Shown here piece by piece: positions 6,557-45,149 of a stretch of 64,000 nt of DNA. The position numbers and the translations under genes are program-made. Within the stretch, counting starts at the first letter, position 1; every line of letters starts with the position of its first letter. This DNA is from Octopus vulgaris (Eukaryota), in contig OX597814.1 in NCBI GenBank assembly GCA_951406725.2, positions 74,648,001 through 74,712,000 of the forward strand. The letters run 5' to 3'. The notes beneath the pieces are model-generated. The model was not told where the DNA came from. It worked only from the letters and a program-made list of their open reading frames with translations, and made no database searches.

Positions 6557-7069
6557 TTACATGGAAAAATGCGAGCATGAAAAGTCAAATTCTTCGGATT
6601 ATAAATCTGGAAATGTACAGGATAAGTTATTACACCTGTAAAAGTATAGGACAAGTTATTATTTCTAGTAAAGTAAAGAATAAGAAACTTTTTACTTAAA
6701 ATATTGCAGCTAAAATTAAAATTTGAATATTAAAACTTATTTTATTATAGTTTATAAATAACACTATACTTATTTAAGTAGAATTTGGCTAATTTACTAC
6801 CTTAAATACAGGAAAAAGTGACTAATTAGACAAACTTACAAATTAGCTGAACAGTTTTATACAATAAATTTAAAAGATGAGAACTGTAAAGAGTGATAAA
6901 TTAGAAGAAATGGCATTCTTAATATTTTAAGTAAACAGTTTCTTATTCGTTACTTTACTAGAAGTAATAGCTTGTCCTATACTTTTACAGGTGTAATAAC
7001 TTGTCCTGTACTTTTCCAGGTTTATAATCTTAAGAATATGATTTTTTGTGCTCGCATTTTCCCATGTAA
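6557..7069. mobile_element. Foldback/MITE-like element with ~150-bp imperfect inverted arms
   Basis: ttacatggaaaaatgcgagca...ttacacctgtaaaagtataggacaag...ttacttaaaatatt is mirrored by aatattttaagtaa...cttgtcctatacttttacaggtgtaa...tgctcgcattttcccatgtaa. Confidence 0.75.
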
Positions 7070-9382: not shown

Positions 9383-9611
9383 TATTTCTTTATTACCCAC
9401 AAGGGCTAAACACAGAGGGGACAAACAAGGACAGACATAGGTATTAAGTCGATTACATCGACCCCAGTGCGTAACTGGTACTTAATTTATCGACCCCGAA
9501 AGGATGAAAGGCAAAGTCGACCTCGGCGGAATTTGAACTCACAACGTAACGCAGACGAAATACCGCTAAGCATTTCGCCCGGCGTGCTAACGTTTCTGCC
9601 AGCTCGCCGCC
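9383..9611 (-). mobile_element. Full-length tRNA-derived SINE with a Tx1-LINE-type 3' tail; 17-bp TSD
   Basis: Minus strand ggcggcgagctggcagaaacgttag (A box)...gagttcaaattcc (B box)...tgtcccctctgtgtttagcccttgtgggtaataaagaaata; direct repeat taattttacataatacc at 9366-9382 and 9644-9660. Confidence 0.85.
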
Positions 9612-10273
9612 TTTCAATTTAATTAATACCGATAATTTTACTATAATTTTACATAATACCGATGGTCATCTGACTGCACTGAGTAATTAGCACGAAAATG
9701 TTAAAATCGTTTTATACCCTCAATACGACAGCCCTTTTACAAACAATAGACCAAAGGGTGATCACAGCTTTTAAGTTTTATTTTTAAGAAAGAACTCATT
9801 ACACAAGCAAATAAGTTACGATTGATTTGAGTGAAATTCTGGTGGCTGAATACTGGAAATAATTAAATATAAGAGACATCATTGAAAATATTCATGAGTC
9901 ATATGATTTATTTGGAAGCTCATCATATGAGTTATTTGGAAGCATGTTTTATCTCATATTAATGTTTTGTTTATTTCTCACTTTCGTAAAATCAATGAAA
10001 TGCTTTACTCATTTTCCATATCAATCTGCAGCCATCCTATATAAATTTTCCCTTCACAGCGTCAATTCTCTGTCAAACATGCATACGCCATATCAATAAG
10101 TAAAAGGCGCACGAAAATATAGCATTTATCCCCATACAAATGGTATGTTGTTCTTAGTGAAGCCGGGTATCGACCCCAGAAGGTCAAAAATTTAAAGTTG
10201 ACATTGGTGAGATATAAATCTATAACGTAGAGCGTTGCTCCTTTGTTGTGACGATGCCAGCTCTATAATAATT

Positions 10274-23100: not shown

Positions 23101-23331
23101 TACGAACTATTATTCTATCTAAATAAGACCTGAACAGCCCGTCGCCATTACTCCTGGTCCACGCTGGGACGCTCGGGTGATCAAGTCTGTAACGATCTCC
23201 CAGCTAAAACCGCTTAAGCAGATCGATGAGGCGTAAGTTTTCTTCCTATTAACTGAGCCAACACAATCCTGGTGTGCATTCAGGATAGCGTGTAAAATCT
23301 CATAACATCACTAATGTCTTCGATGTCACAC
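20164..23331 (-). mobile_element. 5'-truncated, decayed Tx1/L1-clade LINE (ORF2 pseudogene), paralog of the element at 36577-41824
   Basis: Minus-strand fragments NFRPINLLNTELKILAKVLAKRL, LDQSKAFDR, RQGCPLSPLLYVLALEPLL and WWFALKRAIRFESIR; 3' tail tgtctcctccgtgttggaccctgtgtggccaataaaagaaatc; candidate TSD tattgttaaacgctt (20149-20163) / tattactaaacgctt (23332-23346). Confidence 0.93.
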
Positions 23332-25981: not shown

Positions 25982-26890
25982 TAAATAAAAGAGATTAAAA
26001 TTCGTGCTGTATCCTCAGGAAGTACTTCTGCAAATACTTGTTATCAAATGTCTATCTGTAAATGGTTTATCTTCAAGAAGCAAACTATGCAGAGAATCTG
26101 AAATTCTGCGTCAAGTATAATGGTTGCTGAGTATATCAAAAACTGGAATTCATGGTGTTATCTTTAATTCTGTAATTGCAATTATTTCAATAGAACGTGA
26201 GAAATCCATTTTATGAGCATAAATATCCCCGTTAATATCAATATAATAAATTCATAATCTTTATATATATATAAAACTGAGAATGTGTGTCTGTCTGTCT
26301 GCCTGTCTGTGTGTTTCCCTAAAACTTGAGAACTACACAACTAATTTCATTCAAATTTTACAGATGCCTTACTTATGGTCCGGGGAGTGTCATCGGCAAA
26401 ACAATTAACTTTTTGCCTAGGGCGAACCAACAGCAATATCATATCTTCTCCACTACGATTCCCTAAACTCGAGAACTACACAACCAATTTCATTCAAATT
26501 TTACACATGCCTTACTTAGGGTCCATGTAATTTCATGGGCAAAAAAATGTTCAACTTCTTGCCTAGAGCGAGCCCATTGCAATATCATATCTTCTCCACT
26601 ATTTCAGTATTACGTGTTAAAAGTGAAACAAAAACATTTCTCTATTTTATGTCAGATACTTTCACTTTAACAATAAAAATAATAACAATTGAATTATATG
26701 TAGTAAGTAATAATTAAAATCAAACTAAAGTATAATAAACTCGTAACATAAAAAAAGTAAAAATAGCAATTGGCATAAAATTGCATCAATGACTTGAACT
26801 TGAATAAGTGGTTTCACATGAATGGGAATAAATCAAAAATAAAATTAGCGTGCAGAAATGGAATAGTCCAGATGGATAATAAAAAATTAA

Positions 26891-26942
26891 ATTAAAGAAA
26901 AGACTATTGTCTATAAAGTATACAATGTAGAGGAAAAAAGGT
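26891..26942 (+). pseudogene. Left half of the decayed LINE ORF1 fragment (insertion target)
   Basis: Translates IKEKTIVYKVYNVEEKR, aligning with KRTITYRTWCVESKK, KRTISYRVFANERKR and NRRIIYKTFSITNRA in the neighbouring ORF1s. Confidence 0.65.
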
Positions 26943-28728
26943 TGCGTTTTTTTCGGCTCCCGTGTTTTTTTGAGTTAGTTAGTTAGAGTTATTCTGGTGT
27001 GTTTATTCTGGTGTGTTTATTTCGAGTAAAGAGGTTGTGAGTTCGAGTTCGTTGGAGGACGTGGAAAAATTTTTTCTTGAAAATGCAAGAGCAGACTTAC
27101 GCGCGAGCGGCAGGCAGAGGCCTGGTTGCCGGTGAACTGGAAATGGAGGAGGTGATGGTCGAACAGAAGACTTTACAGAAGTATTTCGACAGTTTAAAGA
27201 GGGAGGGTGACTGTGTGATAGTCACACCGTCCGAGGAGGAGGAAAGCAGTGCAGAGAAGCGTACTATAACGTACAGGACGTGGTGCGTGGAGTCGAAGAA
27301 GATTGAAGTAGCGGAAATGGAAGAAGTGGAAAGGTGTCTGAAGGAAATTGAGGGTGAACCAGCATTTTTTAAAAGAGGAAGGAAGTATGCCACGGTAGTG
27401 GTGTATTTTAAAACAGAAGAGGAGGCAAAAAAGAACGCTACAAGAATTTTGAAATCGGATAAGTGGACTTTGCTACCAAGTTACTGCGGAAGGAGAGCAG
27501 TGAGGATGAGAATCAATAGAATCTCACCCGAATTTAATATGGAAAGGTTGCTGGCAGCAGTGCTGTTTAACTGCAAGGATGATGTGGAGGTACTGAAGGT
27601 GGAGAAGTCAGCAGAGGTGAAGTGGTGGGGATATACGGCACACATAACCGTGCGAGACCTGTACAACATCCCGGAGGAGTTGGTCTACCCTGACGAAACA
27701 CGGCTCCGAGTTGTGGTAGAGGGAAGACCCCCAATTTGCTATAACTGTAAATCGAGGGGCCACATGAAGGATGTGTGCCCGCGAGAAAAAACAAAAGCAC
27801 CAGAGGTTGTGATAGAGGAGTGTAAAGAAGCGTGTGTGGAGGAAGCGAAAGCGGAGGAAACACAAATGGAGGAGCAGTTAAATGAGGAAGAACGAGCAAG
27901 TGCAGAAGAGGAAAAAACAGAAGACAAGAAGAGATCAAGGGTGGAATCACCACCGAAAGATATAAAAAAGAAAAAAATCAAAAGCAAGATAGCAGAAGAG
28001 AGAGAAGAGAAAAAAGAACAGGAAGTAAAAGAAAAGGTGAGAGAGCGACCAAGGACAGAGTTTGAACAAGAATGGGAGACAAGAGTGAACGAACAATTGG
28101 AATCGTGTAAATATGGAAGAAGGCCTACAGGAAAAAACTTGAAGGCAGTTGTGATGTATATCAAGAATACAGAAGTGGAAAAGAGACTTGTAGGTAAGAA
28201 AGGGTTGGTCAGGGTGAAGGTGAACCCAAAACTGTATGGTGAAGATGTAAAAGGCGTCATTATAGACAAGGAGACATACACAAAATTAAAAAAGATATAT
28301 CATGCTATGCATATAATGCATTATGTACGGTATGATAAATTACCAGATGTAATAGATCAAACGGACCTATTGGATTATATGACGGACGAGTGTCTAATGT
28401 AAAAGAATTAGAATTGTTACTTGTAAAATTATTTGATGTAAAGTTGTGTTTTTGAACAGGAATATATGTAATGTTAACATGTAAAATTGTAAAATTATTG
28501 TACTGTGAACTGGAATATATGTAACTGTAAAATTGTATTTTGAACTGGAATATATGAAATGTATAATTGTATTTTAAACGGAACTGCGAGTTGGGGGTTC
28601 GTAAGCCGTTCCATCTCATTACATATAAATTCATCTTTTACTTCATATTTTATTTTTACTTTATGTACCCCATGTCCCGTCTTGTAATGTCCCCCTCTTC
28701 GTGGCCCCTTGTGGGTAATAAAAAAATC
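26943..28728 (+). mobile_element. ORF1-only retroelement, unit A
   Basis: Starts gcgtttttttcggctc; single ORF; ends tgtccccctcttcgtggccccttgtgggtaataaaaaaatc. Confidence 0.85.
27083..28402 (+). CDS. LINE ORF1p-like protein (RRM-like region, CCHC zinc knuckle, charged linker), 439 aa from the first ATG
   Basis: Open frame; VEGRPPICYNCKSRGHMKDVC (CX2CX4HX4C); LLPSY.GRR motif shared with ORF1 of the autonomous LINE. Confidence 0.88.
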   Translation: MQEQTYARAAGRGLVAGELEMEEVMVEQKTLQKYFDSLKREGDCVIVTPSEEEESSAEKRTITYRTWCVESKKIEVAEMEEVERCLKEIEGEPAFFKRGRKYATVVVYFKTEEEAKKNATRILKSDKWTLLPSYCGRRAVRMRINRISPEFNMERLLAAVLFNCKDDVEVLKVEKSAEVKWWGYTAHITVRDLYNIPEELVYPDETRLRVVVEGRPPICYNCKSRGHMKDVCPREKTKAPEVVIEECKEACVEEAKAEETQMEEQLNEEERASAEEEKTEDKKRSRVESPPKDIKKKKIKSKIAEEREEKKEQEVKEKVRERPRTEFEQEWETRVNEQLESCKYGRRPTGKNLKAVVMYIKNTEVEKRLVGKKGLVRVKVNPKLYGEDVKGVIIDKETYTKLKKIYHAMHIMHYVRYDKLPDVIDQTDLLDYMTDECLM

Positions 28729-30403
28729 GCGTTTTTTTCGGCTCTGTGTTTTTTGCTCTCTGTGGAATTCGGTAAAAAGAAAAAAGAACAAAAAGTGAAT
28801 GGTTGTTGTTGTAAAATTTTGAACATAGTTGATGCGGTTTCGCGTCTCACTGGTTCTGCGCGTTACACTTTTTCGGTTCGGGAGGCCGTTTCTCGGCCGG
28901 AGGCGACTATGAGCCGCCTCCATCAAGCGGAGGAGATGGAAGGGAGATTTTACTCTGAAATTTCGACGGAAGTATCGACATCTGAGGAGGAGTTGGCGGT
29001 GAAAAAGATGGAAGGCACCTACGCAGGTGTAACGAAGAAGTCAACGGAAAGAGAGATAGACTTGGCTAAGTTGGCGGGCCTCCAGGAGTTTGTGAAGGAG
29101 GACGAGAACGGTGAAGTCGAGCTGCTGCATCCAGTAGGGCGCGGAGACTGGTTCCATCGTAGAACCATTAAATATAAAGTATTTATGAATGGAGGTAGAA
29201 AGATGGAAGTAATCAACATGGAAGCAATTGAAGAGGCTCTCAAGCAGACAGGAGAGGAAATTGTGTACATGACAAAAGGATTACAATACGGAACGATAAC
29301 GGTGCAATTTAAAAGCGAAAAAGCAGCCAGGAATGTAGCAGCCAAGGTGGTGAGTACAGAAAAGATTTACTTGTTACCCTCGTATCTGAATAGGCGGACA
29401 ACTAGAATTAGGGTGGAGGGAATACCTCCACACCTAGAGGGCGAATTAATAACGGCTGCGGTTATAAAAGGAAATGAAGATAAAGTGGACATCCTCCACG
29501 CCATTATGAAGTATGAAGGCGTGAGAGGTGCCACACTAGTTATGAACATTCAAGCGGAGGCGGATGTTATAGAGAGGATTACGGACAGCATAAAAACTGG
29601 AAATATTATTATGAGAGTGTGGGTGGAGGGTAGGGCGCCCAGGTGCTACAAGTGTGGCCAAAGGGGTCACATAAGAGCCTACTGCCCTCCCCCACCAAAG
29701 GAAAAAGAAAAGGAAAGCGTTGAGGAAGCCTCGGGAGAGGAAGAAAATAAACAGAAACAAACAGAGAAGGAAACGACAGAAGAAGAGGAGATGCAACAAG
29801 AGTGGAAAGAAGCGGGAACAAAGAGAAAAAGAAGGAAAAAGAAAAACTGTGCGAAGCCCCAACCCACCCCGACACCACCCATACCCTTGGAGTCCCATCC
29901 TTCCCCTGCAAACAGTAATTCCACCCACTCCCCGCCTACAAGAAAAATAAAAACAGACACACAGAGCAAAGAAAGTCCCAAGACCCATTTTTTATGTGTT
30001 ATACATGGGAAAGACATACAAAACGTTAAAAAACTGGTGTTAACCAAGTGGTACGAACACGAAGATTGGAGCTACACGGCTGTGGATAGTGATGATACGG
30101 GTATATTGGCGACAAGGTTAGAGGAAGAGGGTGTGTGTTGGAAGTCAGTGGAAATGAAAGATGAATGGATAGAGAGGGCTAAAAGAAAAACGAATGTTGT
30201 GATAGGTGAAACAGGAATACTAATTGGAAATGGGTGAAGAAGGACAGACAAGTGATGCTGGCGGATGGGGCCGTCGGTATCACTCTCATATATCATTTTT
30301 CATATTCCATTTTGCTCATATATATGTAATTGTGATGTTCCATGTCCCCATGTCTTGTAATGTCCCCCTCTTCGTTGGCCCCTTGTGGGTAATAAAGAAT
30401 CAT
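28729..30403 (+). mobile_element. ORF1-only retroelement, unit B
   Basis: Same 5' gcgtttttttcggctc and 3' ggccccttgtgggtaataaagaatc termini. Confidence 0.85.
28909..30237 (+). CDS. LINE ORF1p-like zinc-knuckle protein, ~442 aa
   Basis: First ATG inside the unit at 28909 (the ORF track's 28567 start runs through the previous unit's tail); VEGRAPRCYKCGQRGHIRAYC. Confidence 0.87.
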   Translation: MSRLHQAEEMEGRFYSEISTEVSTSEEELAVKKMEGTYAGVTKKSTEREIDLAKLAGLQEFVKEDENGEVELLHPVGRGDWFHRRTIKYKVFMNGGRKMEVINMEAIEEALKQTGEEIVYMTKGLQYGTITVQFKSEKAARNVAAKVVSTEKIYLLPSYLNRRTTRIRVEGIPPHLEGELITAAVIKGNEDKVDILHAIMKYEGVRGATLVMNIQAEADVIERITDSIKTGNIIMRVWVEGRAPRCYKCGQRGHIRAYCPPPPKEKEKESVEEASGEEENKQKQTEKETTEEEEMQQEWKEAGTKRKRRKKKNCAKPQPTPTPPIPLESHPSPANSNSTHSPPTRKIKTDTQSKESPKTHFLCVIHGKDIQNVKKLVLTKWYEHEDWSYTAVDSDDTGILATRLEEEGVCWKSVEMKDEWIERAKRKTNVVIGETGILIGNG

Positions 30404-32138
30404 GCGTTTTTTCGGCTCCTGAAAATTCGGTAAAAAAGAACAAAAAGCGTTGTTGTTGTTGTGGAAATTCTGAACGGCGTTGACGCGGTTTCGCGTTTCG
30501 CTCGTTCAGCGCGTTACACTTTTTCTGTTTTGGCGGCCGTTCTCGGTCTGTCAGACAGAAGGAAATGGACTATGAGTCTCTAACAGACTTGTCCACGACA
30601 GATGAGGAACTGGAACAGGCAATTGCAATGAAGCTGATGGAAGAAAAGGCTGGAATTTTCGAGTCTTTATCAGACCTGCCTACGTCTGAGAAAGAGCTAG
30701 AAATGGCAGCAAGGAATTTGGAAGAGAAGCTGGGTTATACCTATGCCGGTGTAACCAAGAAGGCGGAAGAGAAAGGGGTAGACATGGCCAAGTTGCCAAG
30801 TTACCAGAAATACATGAAAAAGGAAAGCGGTGAGGTGGAACTATCACCGACACCCAGGAGAAAAGAATGGTATGATAAGAGGACCATTAGTTACAGGGTG
30901 TTCGCAAACGAAAGGAAGAGGGCAGAAGTTGTAACCATGGAATGGATAGAGGAGGCCCTGCGAAGAACTGAGGAGGAAATAAATTTTCTGACTCGAGGAT
31001 CCAAGTACGGTACCGTAGTTGTGCATTTCAAAACTGAGTCTGCAGCGAGGAAGATGGCGGCGAAGCCGGTGAAGTCAGAAAAGGTAACCCTATTACCTAC
31101 GTATTTAAACAGGAGGATTACACGAATAAGGGTGGAGGGAGTGCCACCAAACGTGGAGGCAGAATGGATTGTGGCGGCTGTGATCAGCGGCCACGAGGAC
31201 GAAGTGGATATTCTCCATGCCTCGGTTAAGTCCGAGGGCTGGAGAGGCGTAACGGTGGAGCTGAACGTACAGGCAGAGACCGAGGTACTGGTGGACCTGA
31301 CGGAAAGCATCAGACTGGGAGACGTGATCATGAGAGTGTGGGTGGAGGGCAGGGCTCCACGTTGTTACAAGTGTGGCCTGAGGGGTCACATAAGAGCCTT
31401 CTGCCCTCCCCCAGGGAAAGAAATGGATTCCGAACCAGAGAGAGAGAAGCAGAAACCAGAGGAGAAGGAAACAGAGGAAGAGAATACACAGAAATGGAAG
31501 GAAGTTGGAAGTAAGAGGAAGAGAAGAATACGTGGAAAAAAAGAAAATAATATGGAACTCCAATCTCCCCAAAACCTCCCACACCCTCTGAGTCCCACCC
31601 TATCCATGCAGACATTGAACCCACCCGCTCCCCACCAACAAGAAAACAAAAGAAAAAAAAGAATACACACACACAAGAGATTGAAATCGAACCCAGGCCG
31701 TACATTTGTACTATGACTGAACAGAGGGAAGTTAAAAGTCTAATGGAAGAGTATAAACGGTATGATGTTGGAGAGACTAGGTATGCTGTGATTGAAAAAA
31801 AGAACATAGGTGAGTTTATGGGGAGGTGTGAAAAGGAAAATTGGGAGGTGAAAGATATAAGAATGAGCGATGAATTCGTGGAAAATATGAATGAGTATTT
31901 CGGAGTAAGAATGGATATGGAATTTATTCATATTGGCAAAGAACATTCAAGTGACTATGAAAAACAAAGGACAGGTAAGTGATGCTGACGGACGGGGCCG
32001 TTGGTATCGCTTTCATTTTATCATTTTTTTTTCGTTTAACAATTCATGTTCATAAAGTTTAATTATAATGTTCTATGTCCCCATGTTTTGTGATGTCCGC
32101 CATTCTTCGTAGCCCCTTAGTGGGTAATAAAGAAATAC
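30404..32138 (+). mobile_element. ORF1-only retroelement, unit C
   Basis: Same termini; near-identical to unit E. Confidence 0.87.
30565..31982 (+). CDS. LINE ORF1p-like zinc-knuckle protein with frameshift(s) near 31565-31640 (ORFs 30565-31716 and 31713-31982 are one gene)
   Basis: CYKCGLRGHIRAFC; comparison with B and E shows the frame should continue STPKPPTPSESHP...YICTMTEQ...QRTGK*; the indels lie in or next to C/A runs. Confidence 0.8.
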
Positions 32139-34819
32139 GCGTTTTTTTGCGCTCTGTAAAATTCGGTAAAAAAGAACAAAAAGCGTTGTTGTTGTTGTGG
32201 AAATTCTGAACGGCGTTGATGCGGTATCGCGTTTCGCTCGTTCTGCGCGTTACACTTTTTCTGTTTTGGCGGCCGTTTTCGGTCTGTCAGACAGAAGGAA
32301 ATGGACTATGAGTCTCTAACAGACTTGTCCACGACAGATGAGGAACTGGAACAGGCAATTACAATGAAGCTGATGGAAGAAAAGGCTGGAGTTTTCGAGT
32401 CTTTATCAGACTTGTCTACGTCTGAGAAGGAGCTAGAAATGGCAGCAAGGAAATTGGAAGAGAAGCTGGGATATACCTACGCCGGTGTAACCAAGAAGGC
32501 GGAAGAGAAAGGGGTCGACATGGCCAAGCTGCCAAGTTACCAGAAATACATGAAAAAGGAAAGCGGTGAGGTGGAACTATCACCGACACCCAGGAGAAAA
32601 GAATGGTATGATAAGAGGACCATTGTTTACAGGGTGTTCGCAAACGAAAGGAAGAGGGTAGAAGTTGTAACCATGGAATGGATAGAGGAAGCCCTGAGAA
32701 GAACTGAGGAGGAAATAAATTTTCTGACTCGAGGATCCAAGTACGGTACCGTTGTGGTACATTTTAAAAGTGAATCTGCAGCGAGGAAGATGGCGGCGAA
32801 GGCGGTGAAGTCAGAAAAGGTAACACTGTTACCTACGTATTTAAACAGGAGGATTACACGAATAAGGGTGGAGGGAGTGCCACCAAACGTGGAGGCAGAG
32901 TGGATTGTGGCGGCTGTGATCAGCGGCCACGAGGTGATTTTTTATTACCCACTAAGGGGCGACACAGAGGGGGACAACAAAAGACATGGGGACATAGAAC
33001 ATTATAATTAAACTTTATGAACATGTATTGTTAAACGAAAAAAAATGATAAAATGAAAGCGATACCAACGGCCCCGTCCGTCAGCATCACTTACCTGTCC
33101 TTTGTTTTTCATAGTCACTTGAATGTTCTTTGCCAATACGAATAAATTCCATATCCATTCTTACTCCGAAATACTCATTCATATTTTCCACGAATTCATC
33201 GCTCATTCTTATATCTTTCACCTCCCAATTCTCCCTTTCACACCTCCCCATAAACTCACCTATGTTCTTCTTTTCAATCACAGCATACCTAGTCTCTCCA
33301 ACATCATACCATTTATACTCTTCCATTAGACTTTTAACTTCCTCTGTTCAGTCATAGTACAAATGTACGGCCTGGGTTCGATTTCAATCTCTTGTGTGTG
33401 TGTATTCTTTTTTTTCTTTTGTTTTCTTGTTGGGGGGAGCGGGTGGGTTCAATGTCTGCATGGATAGGGTGGGACTCAGAGGGTGTGGGAGGTTTTGGGG
33501 TAGATTGGAGTTCCATATTATTTTCTTTTTTCCACATATTCTTCTCTTCCTCTTACTTCCAGCTTCCTTCCATTTCTGTGTATTCTCTTCCTCTGTTTCC
33601 TTCTCCTCTGGTTTCTGCTTCTCTCTCTCTGGTTCGGGATCCATTTCTTTCCCTGGGGAGGGCAGAAGGCTCTTATGTGACCCCTCAGGCCACACTTGTA
33701 ACAACGTGGAGCCCTGCCCTCCACCCACACTCTCATGATCACTTCTCCCAGTCTGATGCTTTCCGTCAGGTCCACCAGTACCTCGGTCTCTGCCTGTACG
33801 TTCAGCTCCACTGTTACGCCTCTCCAGCCCTCGGACTTAACCGAGGCATGGAGAATATCCACTTCGTCCTCGTGGCCGAAGTGGATATTCTCCATGCCTC
33901 GGTTAAGTCCGAGGGCTGGAGAGGCGTAACAGTGGAGCTGAACGTACAGGCAGAGACCGAGGTACTGGTGGACCTGACGGAAAGCATCAGACTGGGAGAA
34001 GTGATCATGAGAGTGTGGGTGGAGGGCAGGGCTCCACGTTGTTACAAGTGTGGCCTGAGGGGTCACATAAGAGCCTTCTGCCCTCCCCCAGGGAAAGAAA
34101 TGGATTCCGAACCACAGAGAGAGAAGCAGAAACCAGAGGAGAAGGAGACAGTAGAAGAGGAAGAGAATACACAGAAATGGAAGGAAGTTGGAAATAAGAG
34201 GAAGAGAAGAATGCGAGAAAAAAAAAAGAAAATAACATGGAACACCAATCTACCCCAAAACCACCCACACCCTCTGAGTCCCACCCTATCCATGCAGACA
34301 TTGAACCCACCCGCTCCCCCCAACAAGAAAACAAAAGAAAAAAGAGAATACATACAGACAAGAGATTGAAGTTGATATCAGGCCGTACATTTGTACTATG
34401 ACTGAACAGAAAGAAGTTAAAAGTCTAATGGAAGAGTATAAATGGTATGAAGTTGGTGAGACTAGGTATGCTGTGATTGAAAAGAAGAACATAGGTGAGT
34501 TTATGGGGAGGTGTGAAAGGGAGAATTGGGAGGTGAAAGATATAAGAATGAGCGATGAATTCGTGGAAAATATGGATGAGTATTTCGGAGTAAGAATGGA
34601 TATGGAATTTATTCGTATTGGCAAAGAACATTCAAGGGACGATGAAAAACAAAGGACAGGTAAGTGATGCTGACGGATGGGGCCGCTGGTATCGCTTTCA
34701 TAATATCATTTTCTTTCACTTAACAATTCATTTTTCATAAATTTTAATTATAATGTTCTATGTCCCCATGTCTTTTGGTGTCCCCCTCTGTGTCGCCCCT
34801 AGTGGGTAATAAAGAAATA
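32139..34819 (+). mobile_element. ORF1-only unit D: forward 5' part (32139-32934), inverted 3' half (32935-33877), forward 3' half (33878-34819)
   Basis: ORF 32301 breaks at ...VISGHE into tgatttttttattacccactaagggg (reverse-complement tail); palindrome centre ccacttcg-tcctcgtggc-cgaagtgg. Confidence 0.9.
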
Positions 34820-34850
34820 CTATAAAGTATACAATGTAGAGAAAAAAGGT
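34820..34850 (+). repeat. Right copy of the 31-32 bp target-site duplication (left copy 26911-26942)
   Basis: ctataaagtatacaatgtagag(g)aaaaaaggt at both positions, differing by a single G indel. Confidence 0.9.
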
Positions 34851-36564
34851 CGTGTTTTTTTCGGCTCCTGAAATTCGGTAAAAAAGAACAAAAAGCGTTG
34901 TTGTTGTTGTGGAAATTCTGAACGGCGTTGACGCGGTTTCGCGTTTCGCTCGTTCAGCGCGTTACACTTTTTCTGTTTTGGCGGCCGTTCTCGGTCTGTC
35001 AGACAGAAGGAAATGGACTATGAGTCTCTAACAGACTTGTCCACGACAGATGAGGAACTGGAACAGGCAATTGCAATGAAGCTGATGGAAGAAAAGGCTG
35101 GAATTTTCGAGTCTTTATCAGACCTGCCTACGTCTGAGAAAGAGCTAGAAATGGCAGCAAGGAATTTGGAAGAGAAGCTGGGTTATACCTATGCCGGTGT
35201 AACCAAGAAGGCGGAAGAGAAAGGGGTAGACATGGCCAAGTTGCCAAGTTACCAGAAATACATGAAAAAGGAAAGCGGTGAGGTGGAACTATCACCGACA
35301 CCCAGGAGAAAAGAATGGTATGATAAGAGGACCATTAGTTACAGGGTGTTCGCAAACGAAAGGAAGAGGGCAGAAGTTGTAACCATGGAATGGATAGAGG
35401 AGGCCCTGCGAAGAACTGAGGAGGAAATAAATTTTCTGACTCGAGGATCCAAGTACGGTACCGTAGTTGTGCATTTCAAAACTGAGTCTGCAGCGAGGAA
35501 GATGGCGGCGAAGCCGGTGAAGTCAGAAAAGGTAACCCTATTACCTACGTATTTAAACAGGAGGATTACACGAATAAGGGTGGAGGGAGTGCCACCAAAC
35601 GTGGAGGCAGAATGGATTGTGGCGGCTGTGATCAGCGGCCACGAGGACGAAGTGGATATTCTCCATGCCTCGGTTAAGTCCGAGGGCTGGAGAGGCGTAA
35701 CAGTGGAGCTGAACGTACAGGCAGAGACCGAGGTACTGGTGGACCTGACGGAAAGCATCAGACTGGGAGACGTGATCATGAGAGTGTGGGTGGAGGGCAG
35801 GGCTCCACGTTGTTACAAGTGTGGCCTGAGGGGTCACATAAGAGCCTTCTGCCCTCCCCCAGGGAAAGAAATGGATTCCGAACCAGAGGAGAAGGAAACA
35901 GAGGAAGAGAATACACAGAAATGGAAGGAAGTTGGAAGTAAGAGGAAGAGAAGAATACGTGGAAAAAAAGAAAATAATATGGAACTCCAATCTACCCCAA
36001 AACCACCCACACCCTCTGAGTCCCACCCTATCCATGCAGACATTGAGCCCACCCGCTCCCCCCCCAACAAGAAAACAAAAGAAAAAAAAGAATACACACA
36101 CACAAGAGATTGAAAGCGAACCCAGGCCGTACATTTGTACTATGACTGAACAGAAAGAAGTTAAAAGTCTAATGGAAGAGTATAAATGGTATGATGTTGG
36201 AGAGACTAGGTATGCTGTGATTGAAAAGAAGAACATAGGTGAGTTTATGGGGAGGTGGGAAAGGGAGAATTGGGAGGTGAAAGATATAAGAATGAGCGAT
36301 GAATTCGTGGAAAATATGGATGAGTATTTCGGAGTAAGAATGGATATGGAATTTATTCGTGTTGGCAAAGAACATTCAAGTGACTATGAAAAACAAAGGA
36401 CAAGTAAGTGATGCTGACGGACGGGGCCGTTGGTATCGCTTTCATTTTATCATTTTTTTCGTTTAACAATTCATGTTCATAAAGTTTAATTATAATGTTC
36501 TATGTCCCCATGTTTTGTTATGTCCGCCATTCTTCGTAGCCCCTTAGTGGGTAATAAAGAAATC
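34851..36564 (+). mobile_element. ORF1-only retroelement, unit E
   Basis: Same termini; ORF1 matches unit C over the N-terminal ~290 aa, with a 21-bp deletion (REKQKPE). Confidence 0.87.
35013..36411 (+). CDS. LINE ORF1p-like zinc-knuckle protein, frameshifted in a poly-C run at ~36058-36065
   Basis: ORFs 35013-36113 and 35932-36411 join at the homopolymer; this may be a sequencing error or a real indel. Confidence 0.8.
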
Positions 36565-36795
36565 ACATGGAGGAAATCAATTTTTTGCGTTAGTAGTAAG
36601 TTGATATATATTTTTGCTCTCATACTACTTATCTCTGTTATTATATACTGTTGGTCTACCTTTTTTTGTCCATTGTTGTCGAACTGACGAAGTCAACCTT
36701 CGCGCGAAGACTTCGCGTTGGTGTTCCCCCCTCAGTGGGGGAAAACTACAATTAATTTAGATTTACCAAAGGCTTGTTAAAGCCATTTGTTCAAG

Positions 36796-38173
36796 ATGGA
36801 GTCCCCCATCACTTATTCGCCCGTGACGAGCGAGGATGAATACCCGGCGTTGTCGCCAAGTAAAAAAGAGGCGTTGTCGCCAAGAAAAAAGGGCGCTGTC
36901 GCCGAAGAAAAAAGAGGCGGCGTCGCCCAAGAAAATGGAAAAATCAGTACCAGCATCAACTCCAGCAAAAAAATTCGCTGAAGTGGCTGGGAAGAAAATT
37001 AAAAAAATTAACGTGGACAACCTGGGAAAACATGCGGACTGTGTGTCAAAAGAGGGCACGGAAGTAACCGTGGCTTCAAACGCCCAAATACAGGAGGATA
37101 TTTCGAATAGGAGAATAATCTATAAGACATTCAGTATAACAAACAGAGCAATCCAAAAAATAGAGGAGAAAAAGATTGAAAACTGCTTAAAGCCAATAAT
37201 GGATAAAATTACGTATATCAATCGAGGGAAGAAATACGGCACAGTGGAGGTGAGATTCACGTCAGAGGAGGTAGCGAAGAAGCTATCCATGGAACCCATA
37301 AAAGCGGAGGATATTGTTCTCCTACCCCTGTATAAAGGCAAGAGAACTTCCAAGATCACAATGAACAACATCCCGCCAGAAGCGGATGCCGAAGTCCTAG
37401 TGGCAGCAGTTATGGTAGGCCTGGAGGAAAAAATAAACATCCTCCAGGCCACCGTAGAAGAAGAAGAATTCTGGAAAGGGCAAAAGATAATAATAGCCAT
37501 ACGAGCAGAAGTACAAACCCTGGAAGAGATCCCAGAGACTCTAAGGATAAGCGAAGATGAAAGAGTCACAGTCTTCGTAGAGGGCAGAAAGCCGAGGTGC
37601 TTCGGCTGCGGTAAGAAGGGGCATGTAAGGGCGGAATGCCAGCCCCAACCCAAACCGCAGGAAGCACCTAAGCCAAAAGAAAAAGAAGACAATGTGTCAC
37701 CAGAAGCAGCGTCAGACGGCCCAGAAGGGAAGACTGAAGGTGTGGAGGTGATGGTAACAGCAGAACCAGCGGCGGAGAAAAAAAAGAGCGAGGAAAAGAT
37801 AAATGAGGAGGGGTGGGCAAAAATTATCGGAAAAAAAAAAAGAAAAACGGAAACCACCCCTCCCAGAGTAATTTTAAAAAAGAAAAAAGAGTCAATGAAC
37901 TCATATATGGCCGTAAAAGCATCAAATAGCAGACTCGGAAACGTGTTGGCAGCCATGGCCAAAGTGAAGAAAGTAGAGAAAAAAAATGACTTTGTAATTT
38001 ACAAAATAGACCGGAAGGATTACGGGCGGATAAAGTCAGAATTCTTCCATGACGTAGGCCCACTTAGGTTGGATGTAACATCTCCACATATATTCGAGGG
38101 CCTACGTCAGACTCCCCCACGAGGCCCAGAAAAAGAGAAGGAAGAAGAAGAAAAAACCGAACCACTGATATAA
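36796..38173 (+). CDS. ORF1p (gag-like, CCHC zinc knuckle); probable true start 36796 with a frameshift in a 24-bp repeat at ~36890
   Basis: MESPITYSPVTSEDEYPALSPSKKEALSPRKK joins ALSPKKKEAASPKKMEK...; VEGRKPRCFGCGKKGHVRAEC. Confidence 0.88.
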
Positions 38174-38182
38174 AGGTAAGTA

Positions 38183-41100
38183 ATGGATTACATTTATGTT
38201 GGTTGTTTAAATGTGCGCGGCCTGGGAGCAGGCTGGAAGCAAGGTCGCTTCCTGCATGATATCAGGTCGCGTAATTTAGATGTTATTGTTGCTACAGAAA
38301 CCCGGTTAGAGGGGCCAAGAGGTCTACTCCCGCTGTTTGACGGCTACGAGAGTTTTTTCTCTCCTGGCAGTCCTACAGGCGGGAGTGGGGTGTTGGTCCT
38401 ATTAAAAAGAAACCGGGTTTCTGAGAAAAAGTTAATTTTTGCAGATCCAGAAGGTAGGCTGGTCGTCATGGATTTGACGTTCAGTAATGGTAAAGTTATC
38501 AGACTGGTTGCAATTTACGCACCCAACCATACAGGGCAAAGTGATTATTTTCGTGAACTAGAAAACTTTCTTGGTACTTCGCATTCATTAGTGGTGCTAG
38601 GAGACTTTAACACAATTTGCAAAGCGGATGTAGATTATGTTGGCTCGTGTCCAGATAGAAAAGGCAACAGTGGCTTCATGGAACTGCTAAGCCGCTTTGA
38701 GCTAGCAGATCCTTATAGGCTGGAATTTCCGAACGCTCCATTGTGGACATGGTCAAACAGCGACGGATCTTCCAGGTCATATCTAGATAGAATACTAATT
38801 AGAAAAGTAGACAGTAAAATAGCTAAGTGTCCACAGTTTTACCCGATCAGCTACAGTGATCATAAAATGGTCACTTGTAAGCTTGACATAGATAAGGTTA
38901 AAAATAGAGGATCCGGTTACTGGAAACTTAATACGTCCCTTTTGGCGATTAAGGAGTACAAAGACCGGATTAGGAATATAATTCAGAGGGCACTATCTGG
39001 TACCATCATTAATAACAAATGGTGGTACGCCCTCAAACGAGCCATCAAGTTTGAGTCTATTAGATATAGCATAGGAGTAGTGGCTAGAGAGGCTAGAAGG
39101 GAAACTACTCTAGTTAAGGAATTAGAGGAAGCCATGAAAACTGGCTCTGCGGCTCAGGTGGCGGCCAAGAGACTGGTGTTAAACCAGCACCTCGAGGCCA
39201 AACACATGGGCTGCATTGTCAGGGCTAGAATCCGTCATATGGGATGTGAAGGAATCAACGCCGTGAGATGGGCCCGAGTGGTGGAAGCTCAGCATGGTAA
39301 CGATGCCACGATTCGATCTTTGACGAACCAACAAGGTGAGTTGATAAACGAACCCGAGGAGATGTGTGAGGCCTTTCAGGAGCACTTCGCTCAGCTTTTC
39401 GGTGAGTGCGGCGGACTGGATAGGAGGAGGGCCTTTACGGACCTACTCGACGGTCTGCCGCGCTTATCGGGGCGAGATGCGGAGGGCTGTGAAGGGCCAA
39501 TCACGCCTGAGGAGGTGGTTGAGGCAATGGCGGACTGCGGCGCGGGCAAGGCGCCGGGTTTGGATGGTCTACCCTATGAGTTATATAAGAGTATGCCAGA
39601 CTTGTTCGGGCACCTACTGGCGGAGGTCTACGCGAACTGGCAGCAGAACGGGCTTATACCCAGATCTGTGCGCCGGGGAGTAGTGACTCTCGTCAGAAAG
39701 GACCCGAGCAAGGGGGAGTGCATTGATAATTTCAGGCCCATCACTCTGCTAAACACAGAGTTGAAGATTTTGGCCAAAGTGTTATCGAAAAGATTGGCGC
39801 GTGTCGCGGATGGTCTGATCGGAGGGGCACAGACATGTGCCGTTCCGGGCAGATCCATTCAGGATAATCTCCATCTAATGCGGTACACTATAGAGGGGTT
39901 TAATAGTGATTCTGGCAAGGGTGGGGCACTGGTCCATTTAGACCAATCTAAAGCTTTTGATAGGGTCGACCATCGTTACCTGGTATCTGCCCTGGCACAG
40001 TTCGGGCTGAGCCTTGGATTCCTCAGGTGGATTATCGAAATTTATGATAACATCGACTCGGTAGTTCGGGTGAACGGCTTCTTGTCGAAGCCGTTCAAAA
40101 TCAAACGCTCGGTTCGTCAAGGGTGTCCGCTCTCCCCGCTTTTGTACGTGATGGCTCTTGAGCCATTACTGCGAAAACTGAGCGGCATCCCGAGACAGCC
40201 AGGTAATGGAAAATCAGTGTCAGCGTACGCGGATGACATCACCATCATCGTAACCGAAATGGACCACCTATGTAAAGTAGGCAAGGCCATAGAGGTGTAC
40301 GAGACGGTGACAGGAGCAAAAGTTAATCGCGAAAAGTCAGTCGGCTTGCAACTCGGCACCTGGAGAGGCAAGTCGATGCCTCCTGACAGCGTCGTGGGAC
40401 GTTGGACGGAGGGTCCGATTAAACTGCTAGGGGTCTGGTTCGGTCCAGACCTCCAAATAGAGAAGAATTGGGGCGAGGTAACGAGCAAGGTGGCTGCAGT
40501 AGCCAAGACCTGGTCTTGGCGGTGGCTATCCCTGAAAGGGAGGGCGGAGGTGGCCAATGTGTTTATCGCATCGGTTATCACCTACCGCCTTTCCGTCGTT
40601 CCTTGCCCTGATTCGTGGTTGATCAAGTTGGAAAGACAGCTCTTCTACTTCTTGTGGAAGGGCGGGAAACCACTTGTGAAACGCTCTACTTGCTGTCAAC
40701 AACCGTTAAAGGGTGGGCTAGGGATGCCTTGGCTGATGATGCGCAGACATGCGCTGAGGTTAAGACATCTGTGGCTCTACCTGGATGGTGAACGGGTGTG
40801 GTCTTCGCTAGCAAAACTGATGTTTCCCAAGTTCACTAGTTTCGGTGGATGGGAAACCTGGCTGAATCGTAGATCGAAACTTGGTACTTGGTACACGGAG
40901 TGTCGCAAGGCTCTCCTGCTATTCCGTCGCTCGGGCAACGCCTGCGGTGGGGGTTCCACCACATTCTTCTATAGAGGGTTGGTAGAGGCGGAATGTGAAG
41001 ATACCTTGGGGGAAACCCTAGGTCTCGACGATAATCAGCTGGCCAGTCTGTTCCGACGTACGTTCGAGCCAAGGACACTGGACAACTTCCAGAAGTCTCT

Positions 41101-41578
41101 GGCATGGCAATGCTACAGAGGAGCTCTACCTGTTCGGGATAAACTCGCAAGGCACGGTGGCCAAGACAGTCCGATATGTCCAAGATGCGGGCGGGATAGG
41201 GAAACCGTCCCGCACGCGATTGTTCATTGTCCGGACGTGTCTGAGGTGTGGGTTTATGCCGAACACCTGTTGTCAGGTACACGAAGAGTACAGCTGTCGA
41301 CTGAGTCGATTACAAAAATTGACCCACCGGATTTCCTCGTGAATGAAGGTAAGTTTCGTTTTCTCGTTGTAGTAGCAATCGCGAAAGAGGTGATATGGAA
41401 GACGAGAATGAAAGGTTTACAGTCAGGCAAGTTCATCTCCGGCCCTGGTTTGATGAATTATTTCATCTTTCACCTGAAAAGGAAGATAGGGCTGGAGAGA
41501 ATATGCCTGACTAGGAGAGCGTATGAAGAACGATGGAAGGATGTAGCACGGAAGTTGCGAATGAAAGTTACAACATAA
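38183..41578 (+). CDS. ORF2p: APE endonuclease, reverse transcriptase and C-terminal zinc finger (1131 aa, intact)
   Basis: EN motifs NVRGL, TET, IYAP, GDFN, YLD, SDH; RT motifs PGLDG, FRPITLLN, LDQSKAFDRV, RQGCPLSP, YADD; GGLG; CPRC...H...C; GYWKLN linker typical of L1/Tx1. Confidence 0.97.
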   Translation: MDYIYVGCLNVRGLGAGWKQGRFLHDIRSRNLDVIVATETRLEGPRGLLPLFDGYESFFSPGSPTGGSGVLVLLKRNRVSEKKLIFADPEGRLVVMDLTFSNGKVIRLVAIYAPNHTGQSDYFRELENFLGTSHSLVVLGDFNTICKADVDYVGSCPDRKGNSGFMELLSRFELADPYRLEFPNAPLWTWSNSDGSSRSYLDRILIRKVDSKIAKCPQFYPISYSDHKMVTCKLDIDKVKNRGSGYWKLNTSLLAIKEYKDRIRNIIQRALSGTIINNKWWYALKRAIKFESIRYSIGVVAREARRETTLVKELEEAMKTGSAAQVAAKRLVLNQHLEAKHMGCIVRARIRHMGCEGINAVRWARVVEAQHGNDATIRSLTNQQGELINEPEEMCEAFQEHFAQLFGECGGLDRRRAFTDLLDGLPRLSGRDAEGCEGPITPEEVVEAMADCGAGKAPGLDGLPYELYKSMPDLFGHLLAEVYANWQQNGLIPRSVRRGVVTLVRKDPSKGECIDNFRPITLLNTELKILAKVLSKRLARVADGLIGGAQTCAVPGRSIQDNLHLMRYTIEGFNSDSGKGGALVHLDQSKAFDRVDHRYLVSALAQFGLSLGFLRWIIEIYDNIDSVVRVNGFLSKPFKIKRSVRQGCPLSPLLYVMALEPLLRKLSGIPRQPGNGKSVSAYADDITIIVTEMDHLCKVGKAIEVYETVTGAKVNREKSVGLQLGTWRGKSMPPDSVVGRWTEGPIKLLGVWFGPDLQIEKNWGEVTSKVAAVAKTWSWRWLSLKGRAEVANVFIASVITYRLSVVPCPDSWLIKLERQLFYFLWKGGKPLVKRSTCCQQPLKGGLGMPWLMMRRHALRLRHLWLYLDGERVWSSLAKLMFPKFTSFGGWETWLNRRSKLGTWYTECRKALLLFRRSGNACGGGSTTFFYRGLVEAECEDTLGETLGLDDNQLASLFRRTFEPRTLDNFQKSLAWQCYRGALPVRDKLARHGGQDSPICPRCGRDRETVPHAIVHCPDVSEVWVYAEHLLSGTRRVQLSTESITKIDPPDFLVNEGKFRFLVVVAIAKEVIWKTRMKGLQSGKFISGPGLMNYFIFHLKRKIGLERICLTRRAYEERWKDVARKLRMKVTT

Positions 41579-41824
41579 ATGTAATACCAAGTGCAACCAA
41601 AAGTATCAGTGGGGAGGCGGGGCTCGTGGGGTCCGAGCTAAACCCGCACCCACTCCACCCGTAATGTCTTCCGGTCTGTCCTATCACTCGATTTCTGTCC
41701 ATTTATTGTTATTCATGAAAATTTTTAAACCCGATTTATTGTAAAAACCCATTCGTTTGTCTGACCCCATCATCAGATTGTATTGTCCCATCTGTGTTCG
41801 CCCCTTGTGGGTAATAATAAAACA

Positions 41825-42145
41825 ACATGGAGGAAAGCACCTTCGAAAAGTGTCTTGGTGCGACTATGAAAGTTATCTAATCAGAGGCGGTAAACTCGCC
41901 ACAATAGAAGCAAGGTTCGAGTCAACGGAGCGTGCAAAGGAGTACTCGACTCGAACTTGTAAAGTGGAAATATTCTATTTCTACCTTTATATCTGGGACG
42001 TAGGACGTCCCGGAAAAAATTTAAAATGCCCCCCCCCCCCCCCGAAGTAGAGGTAGGTTGGATTGTAGCCACACTTCTATACAAGAGGGAGGACAAGATA
42101 CAATTGATCGAAATTACAAGAGACGGGCTAACAATTCCAGTCTGT
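41825..42145 (+). pseudogene. Right half of the decayed LINE ORF1 fragment (insertion target)
   Basis: Frameshifted MEESTFEKCL / SYLIRGGKLATIEARFESTERAKEYS / FLPLYLGRRTSR / PEVEVGWIVATLLYKREDKIQLIEI, collinear with the ORF1s of units A-F. Confidence 0.85.
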
Positions 42146-42589
42146 TATATATTTTGAGTATTGTTATCACTAGCGATATCAAGATATAACTTTGTATTTT
42201 GTATTTTATGTGTAGATGTATATACATAGATGTACATGTAATATGTACACATATATATACACATATATACATGCACTAGCACTATGACCCGGCAACGACG
42301 GGTCTTTAATGCTAGTATTATAATAACTATACATACATGGGTACTTACAACATGGATACTTACAAAATGTGTGTGAGCGTATATATGTATGTATGTATAA
42401 TATTTTAAGACTCCATTACTCAAATTCCATTCACAAAGCTTCAAAACTGTATTTATAGAAAATTAAATTGCATAAATATTACAAGCCGACCGTATTCTCA
42501 TTCCCTACCAATAACCTACACTTGCATATGCGGGAGTGGATCAGTTAGTGCATTTATGCATAATTTTTTCCGTTATTCCATTTTTAATA

Positions 42590-42809: not shown

Positions 42810-43524
42810 TATATCTCACTTTGTGAATTCATCTCCGAACAAATTGCTTTCATTCTCCATTTTAAATGGTTTTAAATACATCTGTGGTAATTCCATATTG
42901 GTGCGTATCGCTGATGACGTTTGAATTTTTTTTTTTGTCATTTTGCTTTGGTTTTTATTTTGTTACTATTTTAACCGACTTCATTCACATTACAGATGCT
43001 TCAATCTCGATATTCTGAAAAGCCCGAGAAAAAAATTATGAATATCCCGTAAATATAAGTTTATACCTTCCTACTCCACATTCAAGAAAGACCGTTTCAC
43101 ACTTCACAGGTTGTGTATTGAGTAATTTATATTCGTCAATAAGTCGTCTATTGAATAATTTCTATTCGTACATAGAGGGTTATTTACTTGCGCATTTATG
43201 GTACTCCTTGAAGTTTGTGGTACTTCTCTTAGCAAGTATGTAATATATTTATAGCAGTTTTATACTTTTATAAAATCAACCAGTTATGCCACGGGCAAAA
43301 TATTTTGTATTTTACACTATTAAAAAATAAAAATTACTGAGATACTCTTTGAGCAGGTCACGACGAAGATCATACTCAATAAAGGAACTGATTTATAATC
43401 ATCACCATTCAAAACTATCATTTTTTAGTTTCATGCGGTCGGTAAAAAAATATATTTTCTCGATTTTTCGAGACATTTTAAAAAAATTGAATATTGCTAC
43501 AAGTTAAATTTAAAATAAAATATA

Positions 43525-44326
43525 GGATCGTTACCTTTTGACCGACAAATTTAAAAAATAATTTTTTGTAACTAAACACTTTCAAACTGCGAACACTGGT
43601 AGAATGTGTCATACAAAACATGTTTTACTCGCAGAATTTTTGAGAAAAACTTATATTTACGAAGTTATTTCACGTTTAAGTTCTCGTATTTCGGTAATTT
43701 CAACCAATGACGTGTATTCAGTTGAATAAAATTACTGCCGTTGTTTGTCAACAACAACTGTCGGTGGTGTATTTTTCGTTTGTCACTGTTATTTATGACA
43801 TCGTTCGTGCGTTTGTACTGGTTTTAAGGTTTTGGGTTAGGGTTAGGGTTAGGGTTTTAGGGTTAGGGTTAGGGGTAGGGTTTTAGGTTTTAGGGTTAGG
43901 GTGTTAGGGTTAGGGTTTTAGGGTTAGGGTTAGGGTTAGGGTTTTAGGTTTTAGGGTTAGGGTGTTAGGTTAGGGTTTTAGGGTTAGGGTTAGGGTTATA
44001 AGGTCAGGGTTAGGGTTTTAGGGTAAGGGTTAGGGTTAGGGTTTTAGGGTTAGGGTTGTCATAAATAACAGTGACAAACGAAAAATACACCGCCAGAAGT
44101 TCTTGTTGACAAACAACGGCAGTAATTTTATTCAGCTGAATACACGTTGAAATTACCGAAATTTTACAACTTTAACGTGGAATAACTTCGTAAATATATG
44201 TTTTTCTCAAAAATGCTAAGAGTAAAACATGTTTTATATGACACATTCTACCAGTGTCCGAAGTTTGAAAGTGTTTAGTTACAAGAAATTATTTTTTTAA
44301 ATCTATAGGTCAAAAGGTAAAGATCC
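43525..44326. mobile_element. Foldback DNA element with ~275-bp TIRs, GGATC termini, 8-bp TSD and an internal telomeric repeat tract
   Basis: aaaatata|ggatcgttaccttttgacc...tgttatttatgaca / tgtcataaataaca...ggtcaaaaggtaaagatcc|aaaatata. Confidence 0.85.
43820..44057 (+). repeat. Interstitial (TTAGGG)n tract with TTTTAGGG variants
   Basis: Direct reading. Confidence 0.95.
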
Positions 44327-45149
44327 AAAATATATTCTAATTAGTTTGTATAAACAATGACTTATGGTTTCAGTAGCTTACTAAACTTTCATGAATAAAA
44401 ATCATGTTTATTACTTTTAGTTTTGTATTTACATATTATATGTATACATTCTTTACCTTCAATTACTATAGTTAAGATACGCTATCAATTCAATTAAATA
44501 CAAAACAGGTTGTGCGGTAAGTTGCTTCCCAACCATATAAAGAAGCCTGTCGTGTGTGTGTGTTTGTGTGTGTTTCTTTCCCACCACCACTTTACAACCG
44601 GTGTTCGCATGTTTTCGTTCCCGAAACTTAGCGGTTTGACAAAAGTATCTGACAGAATAAGTACGAGGTTTAAAAAAATTAGTACTAGGGTCGATTCGTT
44701 CGACTAAAATTCCTCAAGGCGATGTCCCAGTATGGCCGCGGTCTAATGACAAAAACGAGTAAAAGGTAAAACATAATAGATAAATAATGTCATTAATTGT
44801 GAATTTCTGAATAATACATTCTAATCCAATGAATATTTTTGATATAATTTAAATTCAAGACAACCTTGTTTGTTCACTCACCAAAAATTTACGATGAGTA
44901 TATAATGCTAACGAGTCGCCCTGTATTCTTTCATTAAATTTTGCGCAGTAAAGCTTCACGTCACGTCTGATATTTTGTCGAAAGAAGTCCCTCTAAGTTG
45001 CTTCATGTGTTATACTTTTCTAGTTTATCTGAGACCATGCAGCGAAACTTGAAATTAAATTGGAAATTAAAACAAGTTAGATAAAATCCAATAGTATGAG
45101 GCAAATATTGGTTTCAAGTTTTGGCTCAAGGCAAGCAGTTTCGTGGTAC

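Follow-up and report, generated by a model that had tools for sequence, protein, structure and literature searches.

The stretch considered here, hereafter the window, comprises 64,000 nucleotides (nt) of Octopus vulgaris DNA (assembly GCA_951406725.2, contig OX597814.1, positions 74,648,001 to 74,712,000); on checking, it was found to be animal DNA with 0 N and to be rich in microsatellites. Six units of the long interspersed nuclear element (LINE) type, named A-F, occupy positions 26943-41824 on the same strand, and all six end in a common 3' tail. The units interrupt a relic of the first open reading frame (ORF1) of a LINE, and this relic lies within the termini of a non-autonomous Helitron-like element. 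One LINE and five ORF1-only relatives are stacked head to tail in this way within a 45-bp stretch of the Helitron, and the reading preferred here, by a modest margin over doubt, is that the spot was set by position near a TATA-like motif and not by recognition of ORF1. The features of the locus are as follows.

26258..26869 (+): Helitron-like 5' arm, non-autonomous; starts with TC directly after an A; internal 145-nt duplication (26315-26455 / 26459-26601)
26870..26942 (+): left part of the carried segment; ORF1 homology from ~26894, TATA-like TATAAAG at 26912
26943..28728 (+): unit A, ORF1-only; ORF 27083-28399, doubled 5' end
28729..30403 (+): unit B, ORF1-only; ORF 28909-30234, doubled 5' end
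30404..32138 (+): unit C, ORF1-only; frameshift near the end of the ORF, 5' half identical to E at 794/796 positions
32139..34819 (+): unit D, ORF1-only, C/E family, ~95% identical to C and E; split by an inverted copy
32935..33878 (-): inverted copy in the D ORF1, 5'-truncated and of C/E type; 98.0% identical to C, 95.9% to D
34820..34850 (+): second copy of the ORF1-coding duplication, 31 nt; TATA-like motif at 34821
34851..36563 (+): unit E, ORF1-only; 5-7 nt target loss
36564..36576 (+): host C plus the 5' copy of the 12-nt target duplication of F
36577..41824 (+): unit F, full-length L1/Tx1-type LINE; ORF1 open frame 36827-38170, ORF2 38183-41575
41825..42130 (+): right part of the ORF1 relic, with two frameshifts; 41825-41836 is the 3' copy of the F duplication
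42131..42315 (+): Helitron-like 3' arm; GACCCG/CGGGTC hairpin, then CTAG followed by T

The ORF2 of F encodes APE, RT and zf-RVT domains (Pfam PF03372, PF00078, PF13966), as do LINEs of the L1 group, and its top match in the PDB was human L1 ORF2p (E 7e-65). The ORF1 product of F was modelled with tandem RNA recognition motifs (RRMs) and a CCHC knuckle (pLDDT 81.7), the combination found in ORF1 of that same group; its best fold matches were tandem-RRM proteins (E ~3e-5, with low whole-chain TM), and its zf-CCHC fell below the Pfam cut-off. Database relatives of this ORF1 numbered two among 916 candidates, named Octopus sinensis and O. vulgaris, and F is likened to Tx1 by database name alone ('Transposon TX1 ... 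149 kDa protein', 38% identity; P0088). Between the families A, B, C/D/E and F, the ORF1 proteins are 31-56% identical. Units A-E each possess ORF1, lack ORF2 and have their 3' tail in common with the autonomous LINE, as do derivatives of the HAL1 and TRE5-A.2 type, and this common tail suggests that an F-type ORF2 mobilises A-E in trans. HeT-A is another ORF1-only non-autonomous LINE derivative, of the Jockey clade, that forms head-to-tail arrays at telomeres.

An earlier note on this DNA had proposed that the flanks of the array are the two halves of one split ORF1. The left piece of the relic (26894-26940) reads KEKTIVYKVYNVEEK, and the right piece (41827-42124) carries on across three frames. 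A profile built from the ORF1s of all six units was compared with 1284 six-frame chunks of the window after masking of the elements; the right flank was matched at E 1.7e-8 (41957-42118) and E 1e-3 (41871-41972), and the left flank by itself was weak (E 0.4). When the two halves were joined with an X at the gap, they gave a gap-free alignment over profile positions 98-125 of 13.9 bits, a score reached by 0 of 3000 random joins, the best of which scored 11.9. A second ORF1 profile matched the relic at E 5.7e-10 and 1.1e-4. At the level of DNA, the relic is nearest to the ORF1 of F (61% identity over 277 aligned bases, score 113.5 versus a shuffled maximum of 71.5), and among the five other resident ORF1s that of A alone exceeded its own shuffled maximum, narrowly. 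The relic is one frameshifted fragment of an L1/Tx1-type ORF1 from its tandem-RRM region (profile E 6e-10). A protein search for a donor with the longest frame of the relic returned nine candidates, none at E<=0.01, and exact sequence patterns gave no match in metagenome or viral contigs. Two duplications in the array are ORF1-coding: 26911-26942 / 34820-34850, of 32 and 31 nt and one indel apart, and 36565-36576 / 41825-41836, of 12 nt.

Outside evidence on the uninterrupted site was obtained from public sequencing contigs mapped onto the window, namely those of run X1, which may be the source sample, and of run X7, which bears another organism label. The empty junction was present among the run X1 contigs as four kinds of joint (34848->41825, 34847->41824, 26940->41833 and 26937->41825), and a further 32 contigs of this run have a loose end before 41828, with 93% agreement. 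Eight letters at the empty junction, ATTTGAAC, are absent from the window, and they restore collinearity for the left-copy variant. Both length variants of the 32/31-nt duplication occur among the empty sites. By comparison with these sites, the A-D block is bracketed by the 32/31-nt duplication, the insertion of E lost 5-7 nt of the target, and that of F duplicated 12 nt. The earlier note was therefore right as to the split ORF1, with its coordinates and reading, as to the few nt left unaccounted for in an otherwise collinear frame, which are these eight letters, and as to the ORF1-coding nature of both target-site duplications; the contiguous empty site that it asked to be searched for was found.

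It had called the target a decayed ORF1 and had not seen the surrounding Helitron. The relic is no decayed resident LINE: it comes without a LINE 3' end and without ORF2, and it is enclosed by Helitron-like termini. Helitrons are recognized by a 5'-TC, a CTRR-3' end, a subterminal palindrome and insertion between A and T (PMC4778049), and the host element shows all of these, with 5'-TC and CTAG-3' ends, a position between A and T without duplication, and a GACCCG/CGGGTC stem that stops ~11 nt before the element end. It spans 26258-42315, and its empty length is 1,182 bp, of which the ORF1 cargo makes up ~0.3 kb.

The Helitron-like element is very abundant. Variant positions in the 5' arm were covered by 39-118 run X1 contigs and single positions of the relic by 83-111, and the run X1 depth summed over the arms reached 4.8e5-7.8e5 (a summed depth that does not equal copy number), with depths of 49.5 and 61.7 for the contigs joining the Helitron to its unique flanks. 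The depths of relic and arms are similar, which suggests that the ORF1 piece is present in most copies. It is missing wholly or partly from a few run X1 joints (26869->42131, 26932->42127 and 34848->42128), the latter two of which keep the TATA-bearing left part without the right part. These minor variants share the right breakpoint at 42127-42131 and could be either pre-capture forms or deletion derivatives. Helitrons carry and amplify retrotransposon pieces and nested retro-insertions (PMC4224331). The 0.3-kb mid-ORF1 piece, which lacks a LINE 3' end, would either have been captured by the Helitron or have been left in it when a nested LINE suffered a deletion, and would then have been amplified with it. 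Among the 15 joints listed of 210, none represented a Helitron-free locus. The joint 41820->42130 (side 20, 5 letters fitting both) was not counted as an insertion, as it probably stems from a tail-like host stretch near 26877. Runs X20-X22, raw reads with the same species label, left the elements and the Helitron arms nearly uncovered and were not used; with repeats of such high copy number nearly absent, the label or the filtering of these runs may be off.

To compare the insertions, offsets were counted on the empty site from the first T of TATAAAG (26912) as +1. The 3' junctions of D, E and F lie at ~0, +37 and +38, whereas the 5' junctions of E and A both follow the same base, +31, and that of F follows +49; the 3' junctions are scattered over ~45 bp, and the letters to their right have no motif in common. 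In run X1, the joint 30402->34834 places a B-like tail 5 nt upstream of the 32-nt duplication (~-5), and an E-like tail was found in a contig at +11 (36567), 20-21 nt upstream of an E-type 5' junction. In run X7, an E-like tail is joined to the same 12-13 target letters (+37/+38), which are then followed by a different 5' end (36582). A second mapping, of tail junctions, took in 10 (X1) and 6 (X7) partly fitting contigs. Over both mappings, the contigs gave three tail junctions at the site, three contigs leading to another target, and head-to-tail joins in addition. The depth of run X7 across the junction of tail, 12-nt stretch and F head, ~3,000 versus 5,000-7,000 alongside, is a weak hint. 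Since two further contig tail junctions fall in the same 45 bp, repeated use of the site is likely. Of the three insertions claimed by the earlier note, the close spacing has stood and the number has not, as there were probably six events at the site.

One rival reading is classical Tx1-type sequence specificity, in which the F endonuclease would recognise the Helitron around the 12-nt duplication and later units would use the rebuilt site or anneal via inherited 5' target sequence, as some R2 elements do. The choice of target in Tx1 elements is mainly set by the endonuclease, and transposons are listed among their targets (Kojima, 2015; PMC4494074); at the octopus locus, the 3' junctions of E and F lie within 1 nt of each other, the same tail/target junction recurs in run X7 with a different downstream head, and the 32- and 31-nt variants of the duplication both occur among empty sites. 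The 5' extensions of R2 lead to uniform junctions with deletions or duplications (PMC3774820), and the proposal made for some R2 elements, that target sequence carried by the element anneals at the 5' end, is likewise compatible with a fixed 5' junction next to a variable 3' junction. However, the remaining 3' junctions are found in unrelated sequence 16 to 43 nt farther upstream, and the three head-to-tail junctions differ again in sequence; specificity of this kind is considered unlikely.

Within the array, units A, B, C and D follow one another without a host duplication in between, and a single duplication brackets the four. The 5' ends of A and B are each doubled: ahead of a family-type head, 26944-26959 repeats the first 16 nt of B, and 28729-28744 repeats the first 15 nt of C with one extra T. 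A double head behind a tail was seen in run X7 too. The simplest reading of these sequences is a serial addition of units at the boundary of host and element, in which the head of the previous unit would have been duplicated each time, and this junction anatomy supports the stacking at the ends of resident family members that the earlier note had envisaged. Template jumping in one event, with inherited double heads, is possible. The latter notion forms part of another explanation, with little specificity in it, whereby F chanced on an abundant repeat, A-D arose as one template-jumped cDNA, and the recurring junctions are Helitron-borne or allelic copies of an old event. It draws on the abundance of the Helitron and on the single duplication around a block that is free of internal ones, as well as on the capacity of Helitrons to spread nested retro-insertions (PMC4224331) and on the finding that hitchhiking is a real concern for SINEU-3 (PMC4494074). 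Yet counting A-D as one event still leaves three events crowded into 45 bp of an element 1.18 kb long. Further independent events are needed for the contig junctions found at two additional offsets, and the repeat at the 5' end of A, like that of B, matches the head of the next unit. An accidental accumulation is regarded as improbable.

With an ORF1-derived landing stretch, it could be supposed that the family targets the ORF1 of its relatives, in the manner of the self-targeting Zepp elements, and that the Helitron merely amplified one such target. The likeness of the relic to an F-type ORF1 and the additional insertion in the ORF1 of D speak for this, as does the nesting of Zepp in its own copies (PMC8226300). 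The resident copies do not bear it out. In the six resident ORF1s, the 78 positions homologous to the site are 38-54% identical to the relic in DNA and are interrupted in 0/6, and the ORF1 of B is free of insertions there although its corresponding Tyr-Lys codons likewise spell TATAAAG (29173). A live ORF1 has been entered once, in D, where the inverted copy runs antisense and lies ~90 codons downstream of the site. Insertion into own family copies, as in Zepp, is represented by the stacking at 5' ends and the one insertion in D. Guidance to ORF1 by RNA-DNA homology was ruled out by the identity of 38-54% at the site. ORF1 as such is probably not the target, and on present evidence the ORF1 origin of the landing stretch is probably incidental, for which reason the claim of ORF1 targeting was lowered; self-targeting of the Zepp kind is regarded as very unlikely. 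Targeting of a relative's ORF1, one of the two options inferred in the earlier note, is not supported as a rule; the target is a high-copy Helitron with the ORF1 piece in it. The parallel drawn there with Xenopus Tx1L (in Tx1D) is apt, the targeted transposon at the octopus locus being the Helitron.

The absence of a motif from the junction window, coupled with a TATA-like box that Tyr-Lys codons of the relic spell out 31 nt before two 5' ends, points instead to tethering to a promoter complex. Of 13,244 control positions, 155 (1.2%) have a TATAWAD motif 27-34 nt upstream. Targeting by position, the preferred reading, starts from an ORF1-derived relic, nearest to an F-type ORF1, inside Helitron termini and from many contigs in which the site is uninserted. 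Once the Helitron had taken up the piece and spread it, an F-type ORF2 would have moved A-E in trans through the common tail; tethering to the promoter complex would have set the window of ~45 bp in which the 3' junctions scatter, with E and A starting at the same base, and the elements may be transcribed from that promoter. C, B and A would then each have been added at the 5' boundary of host and element, and B and A carry at their 5' ends repeats of 15-16 nt, which may be hidden target duplications of the head of the previous unit.

Several observations weigh against targeting by position. The TATA test concerns one independent site that was picked after the fact, and F does not conform to +31, its 3' junction being at +38 and its 5' junction at +49, nor does D, the 3' junction of which lies at the TATA itself. 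The promoter activity of the motif is putative, as it is judged from sequence. The extra junctions are single contigs, some of which may be alleles or Helitron-borne copies of the locus, and three contigs join E-like tails to DNA absent from the window. The elements may have inherited their doubled 5' ends, which would then not be duplications made at the site. Finally, two elements lie outside the Helitron: an old paralog of F and, within AT-rich DNA (9386-9615), a short interspersed nuclear element (SINE)-like element that carries the tail of A-F.

The SINE-like element (9386-9615, - strand) carries the A-F 3' tail within a 16-17-nt AT-rich duplication and may be mobilised by the LINE lineage of A-F; it presumably resembles an abundant octopus tRNA-derived SINE. 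The paralog of F (20164-23331, - strand) is 5'-truncated, has a diverged tail and is 66% identical in DNA over ORF2; its flank was seen to be unrelated, as stated in the earlier note.

A bolder extension holds that the captured ORF1 piece, in which Tyr-Lys codons would serve as a working TATA box, was copied thousands of times and became a set of genome-wide promoter-bearing landing pads that the LINE and its ORF1-only partners target, from which they are transcribed and in which they stack. This is considered improbable; if true, a retrotransposon safe harbour would have been built from its own gene by another transposon.

LINEs that target transposons and LINEs that target by position are each known already. 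Among the Tx1 elements, which have been called target-specific where >20% of flanks are of one repeat type, Tx1L enters Tx1D in Xenopus, Tx1-Mar and SINEU-3 enter Mariner-N4_AMi, and Tx1-9_AMi enters Harbinger (Kojima, 2015; PMC4494074). What these cases have in common with the octopus locus is a non-autonomous DNA transposon of high abundance, a single region of which takes up an APE-type LINE and its dependants, frequently as tandems about a duplication (PMC4494074). In contrast, the octopus host is Helitron-like, the dependants encode ORF1, host duplications are missing between most of the units, and the landing stretch derives from a LINE; moreover, specificity in the former cases was established from counts of flanks (PMC4494074), whereas the octopus case is known from one locus and contig junctions. 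TRE5-A.1 and TRE5-A.2 of Dictyostelium likewise pair an L1-like LINE with an ORF1-only derivative, use a positional window and not a cut motif, and build up in tandem without entering each other (PMC5391098). TRE5-A, the ORF1 protein of which binds the TATA-binding protein in vitro, lands ~47 bp upstream of genes transcribed by RNA polymerase III (PMC5391098), whereas the octopus window lies on and behind a TATA-like motif within a transposon, the units are in sense orientation, and the protein contact is hypothetical.

The Zepp and ZeppL elements of green algae are also of the L1 clade and form clusters by nesting at existing copies, but their arrays consist mostly of 5'-truncated 3' ends at centromeres (PMC8226300), unlike the full-length, Helitron-anchored octopus units of several families. 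HAL1 is an ORF1-only non-autonomous derivative of a LINE as well, and site specificity is not described for it in the relevant sections of that source (PMC5753468). With Helibat, the capture and amplification of retrotransposon pieces and nested retro-insertions is shared, whereas the corresponding sections do not describe LINE coding sequence that was captured and then received insertions of the lineage it came from (PMC4224331). A 2026 paper on O. vulgaris repeats lists 13 recently active L1-Tx1 families, and in its main text, as available, 'target', 'nested' and 'ORF1' have 0 occurrences (PMC13282606). No report was found in which LINEs target an ORF1 fragment carried by a Helitron, or in which an octopus Tx1 is target-specific, in a literature coverage that is incomplete, with most subscription papers and Repbase outside it.

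Tx1-type LINEs targeting non-autonomous DNA transposons (PMC4494074), ORF1-only derivatives (PMC5753468) and self-nesting L1s (PMC8226300) are already known; what this locus adds is that the landing pad derives from ORF1, together with a map of the junctions and confirmation that the empty site exists. The origin of the pad illustrates that capture by one transposon can create the niche of another. Were targeting by position true, an animal L1/Tx1-type LINE would possess a positional, promoter-linked targeting like that of TRE5-A, and the many empty and filled Helitron copies would offer natural material for telling whether the cut sequence, the TATA spacing or 5' annealing fixes the site.

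A few further observations were made in the window. A weak second ORF1 relic at ~1490-1750 (+) contains a zinc-knuckle-like stretch of 10.7 bits versus a maximum of 5.1 (65 chunks), and its N-terminal part was not significant; its use as a negative control was dropped, the zinc-knuckle part alone beating the null. At position 1533, upstream of this weak relic, there is a 9-nt match to the target duplication, with no insertion. At 43498-44350, inverted arms of ~300 nt (87% complementary) flank an interstitial TTAGGG-like array of telomere-type repeats, an arrangement like that of a miniature inverted-repeat transposable element or a foldback element. The inverted copy in D forms a 1.9-kb near-palindrome, and at its 5' end it breaks off no more than ~10 nt from the homologous counterpart of the position where it was inserted, which may reflect pairing of the cDNA with the displaced sense strand of a same-family target at insertion. 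An assembly fold-back was rejected as the origin of this inversion, since the arms differ by 4% and the inverted arm ends in a true 3' tail. In the C/D/E family, clustered A>G changes were seen in single run X1 contigs (34067-34070 and 35683-35693); A>G was the commonest change, at 95 places, and could represent RNA-editing marks fixed in copies.

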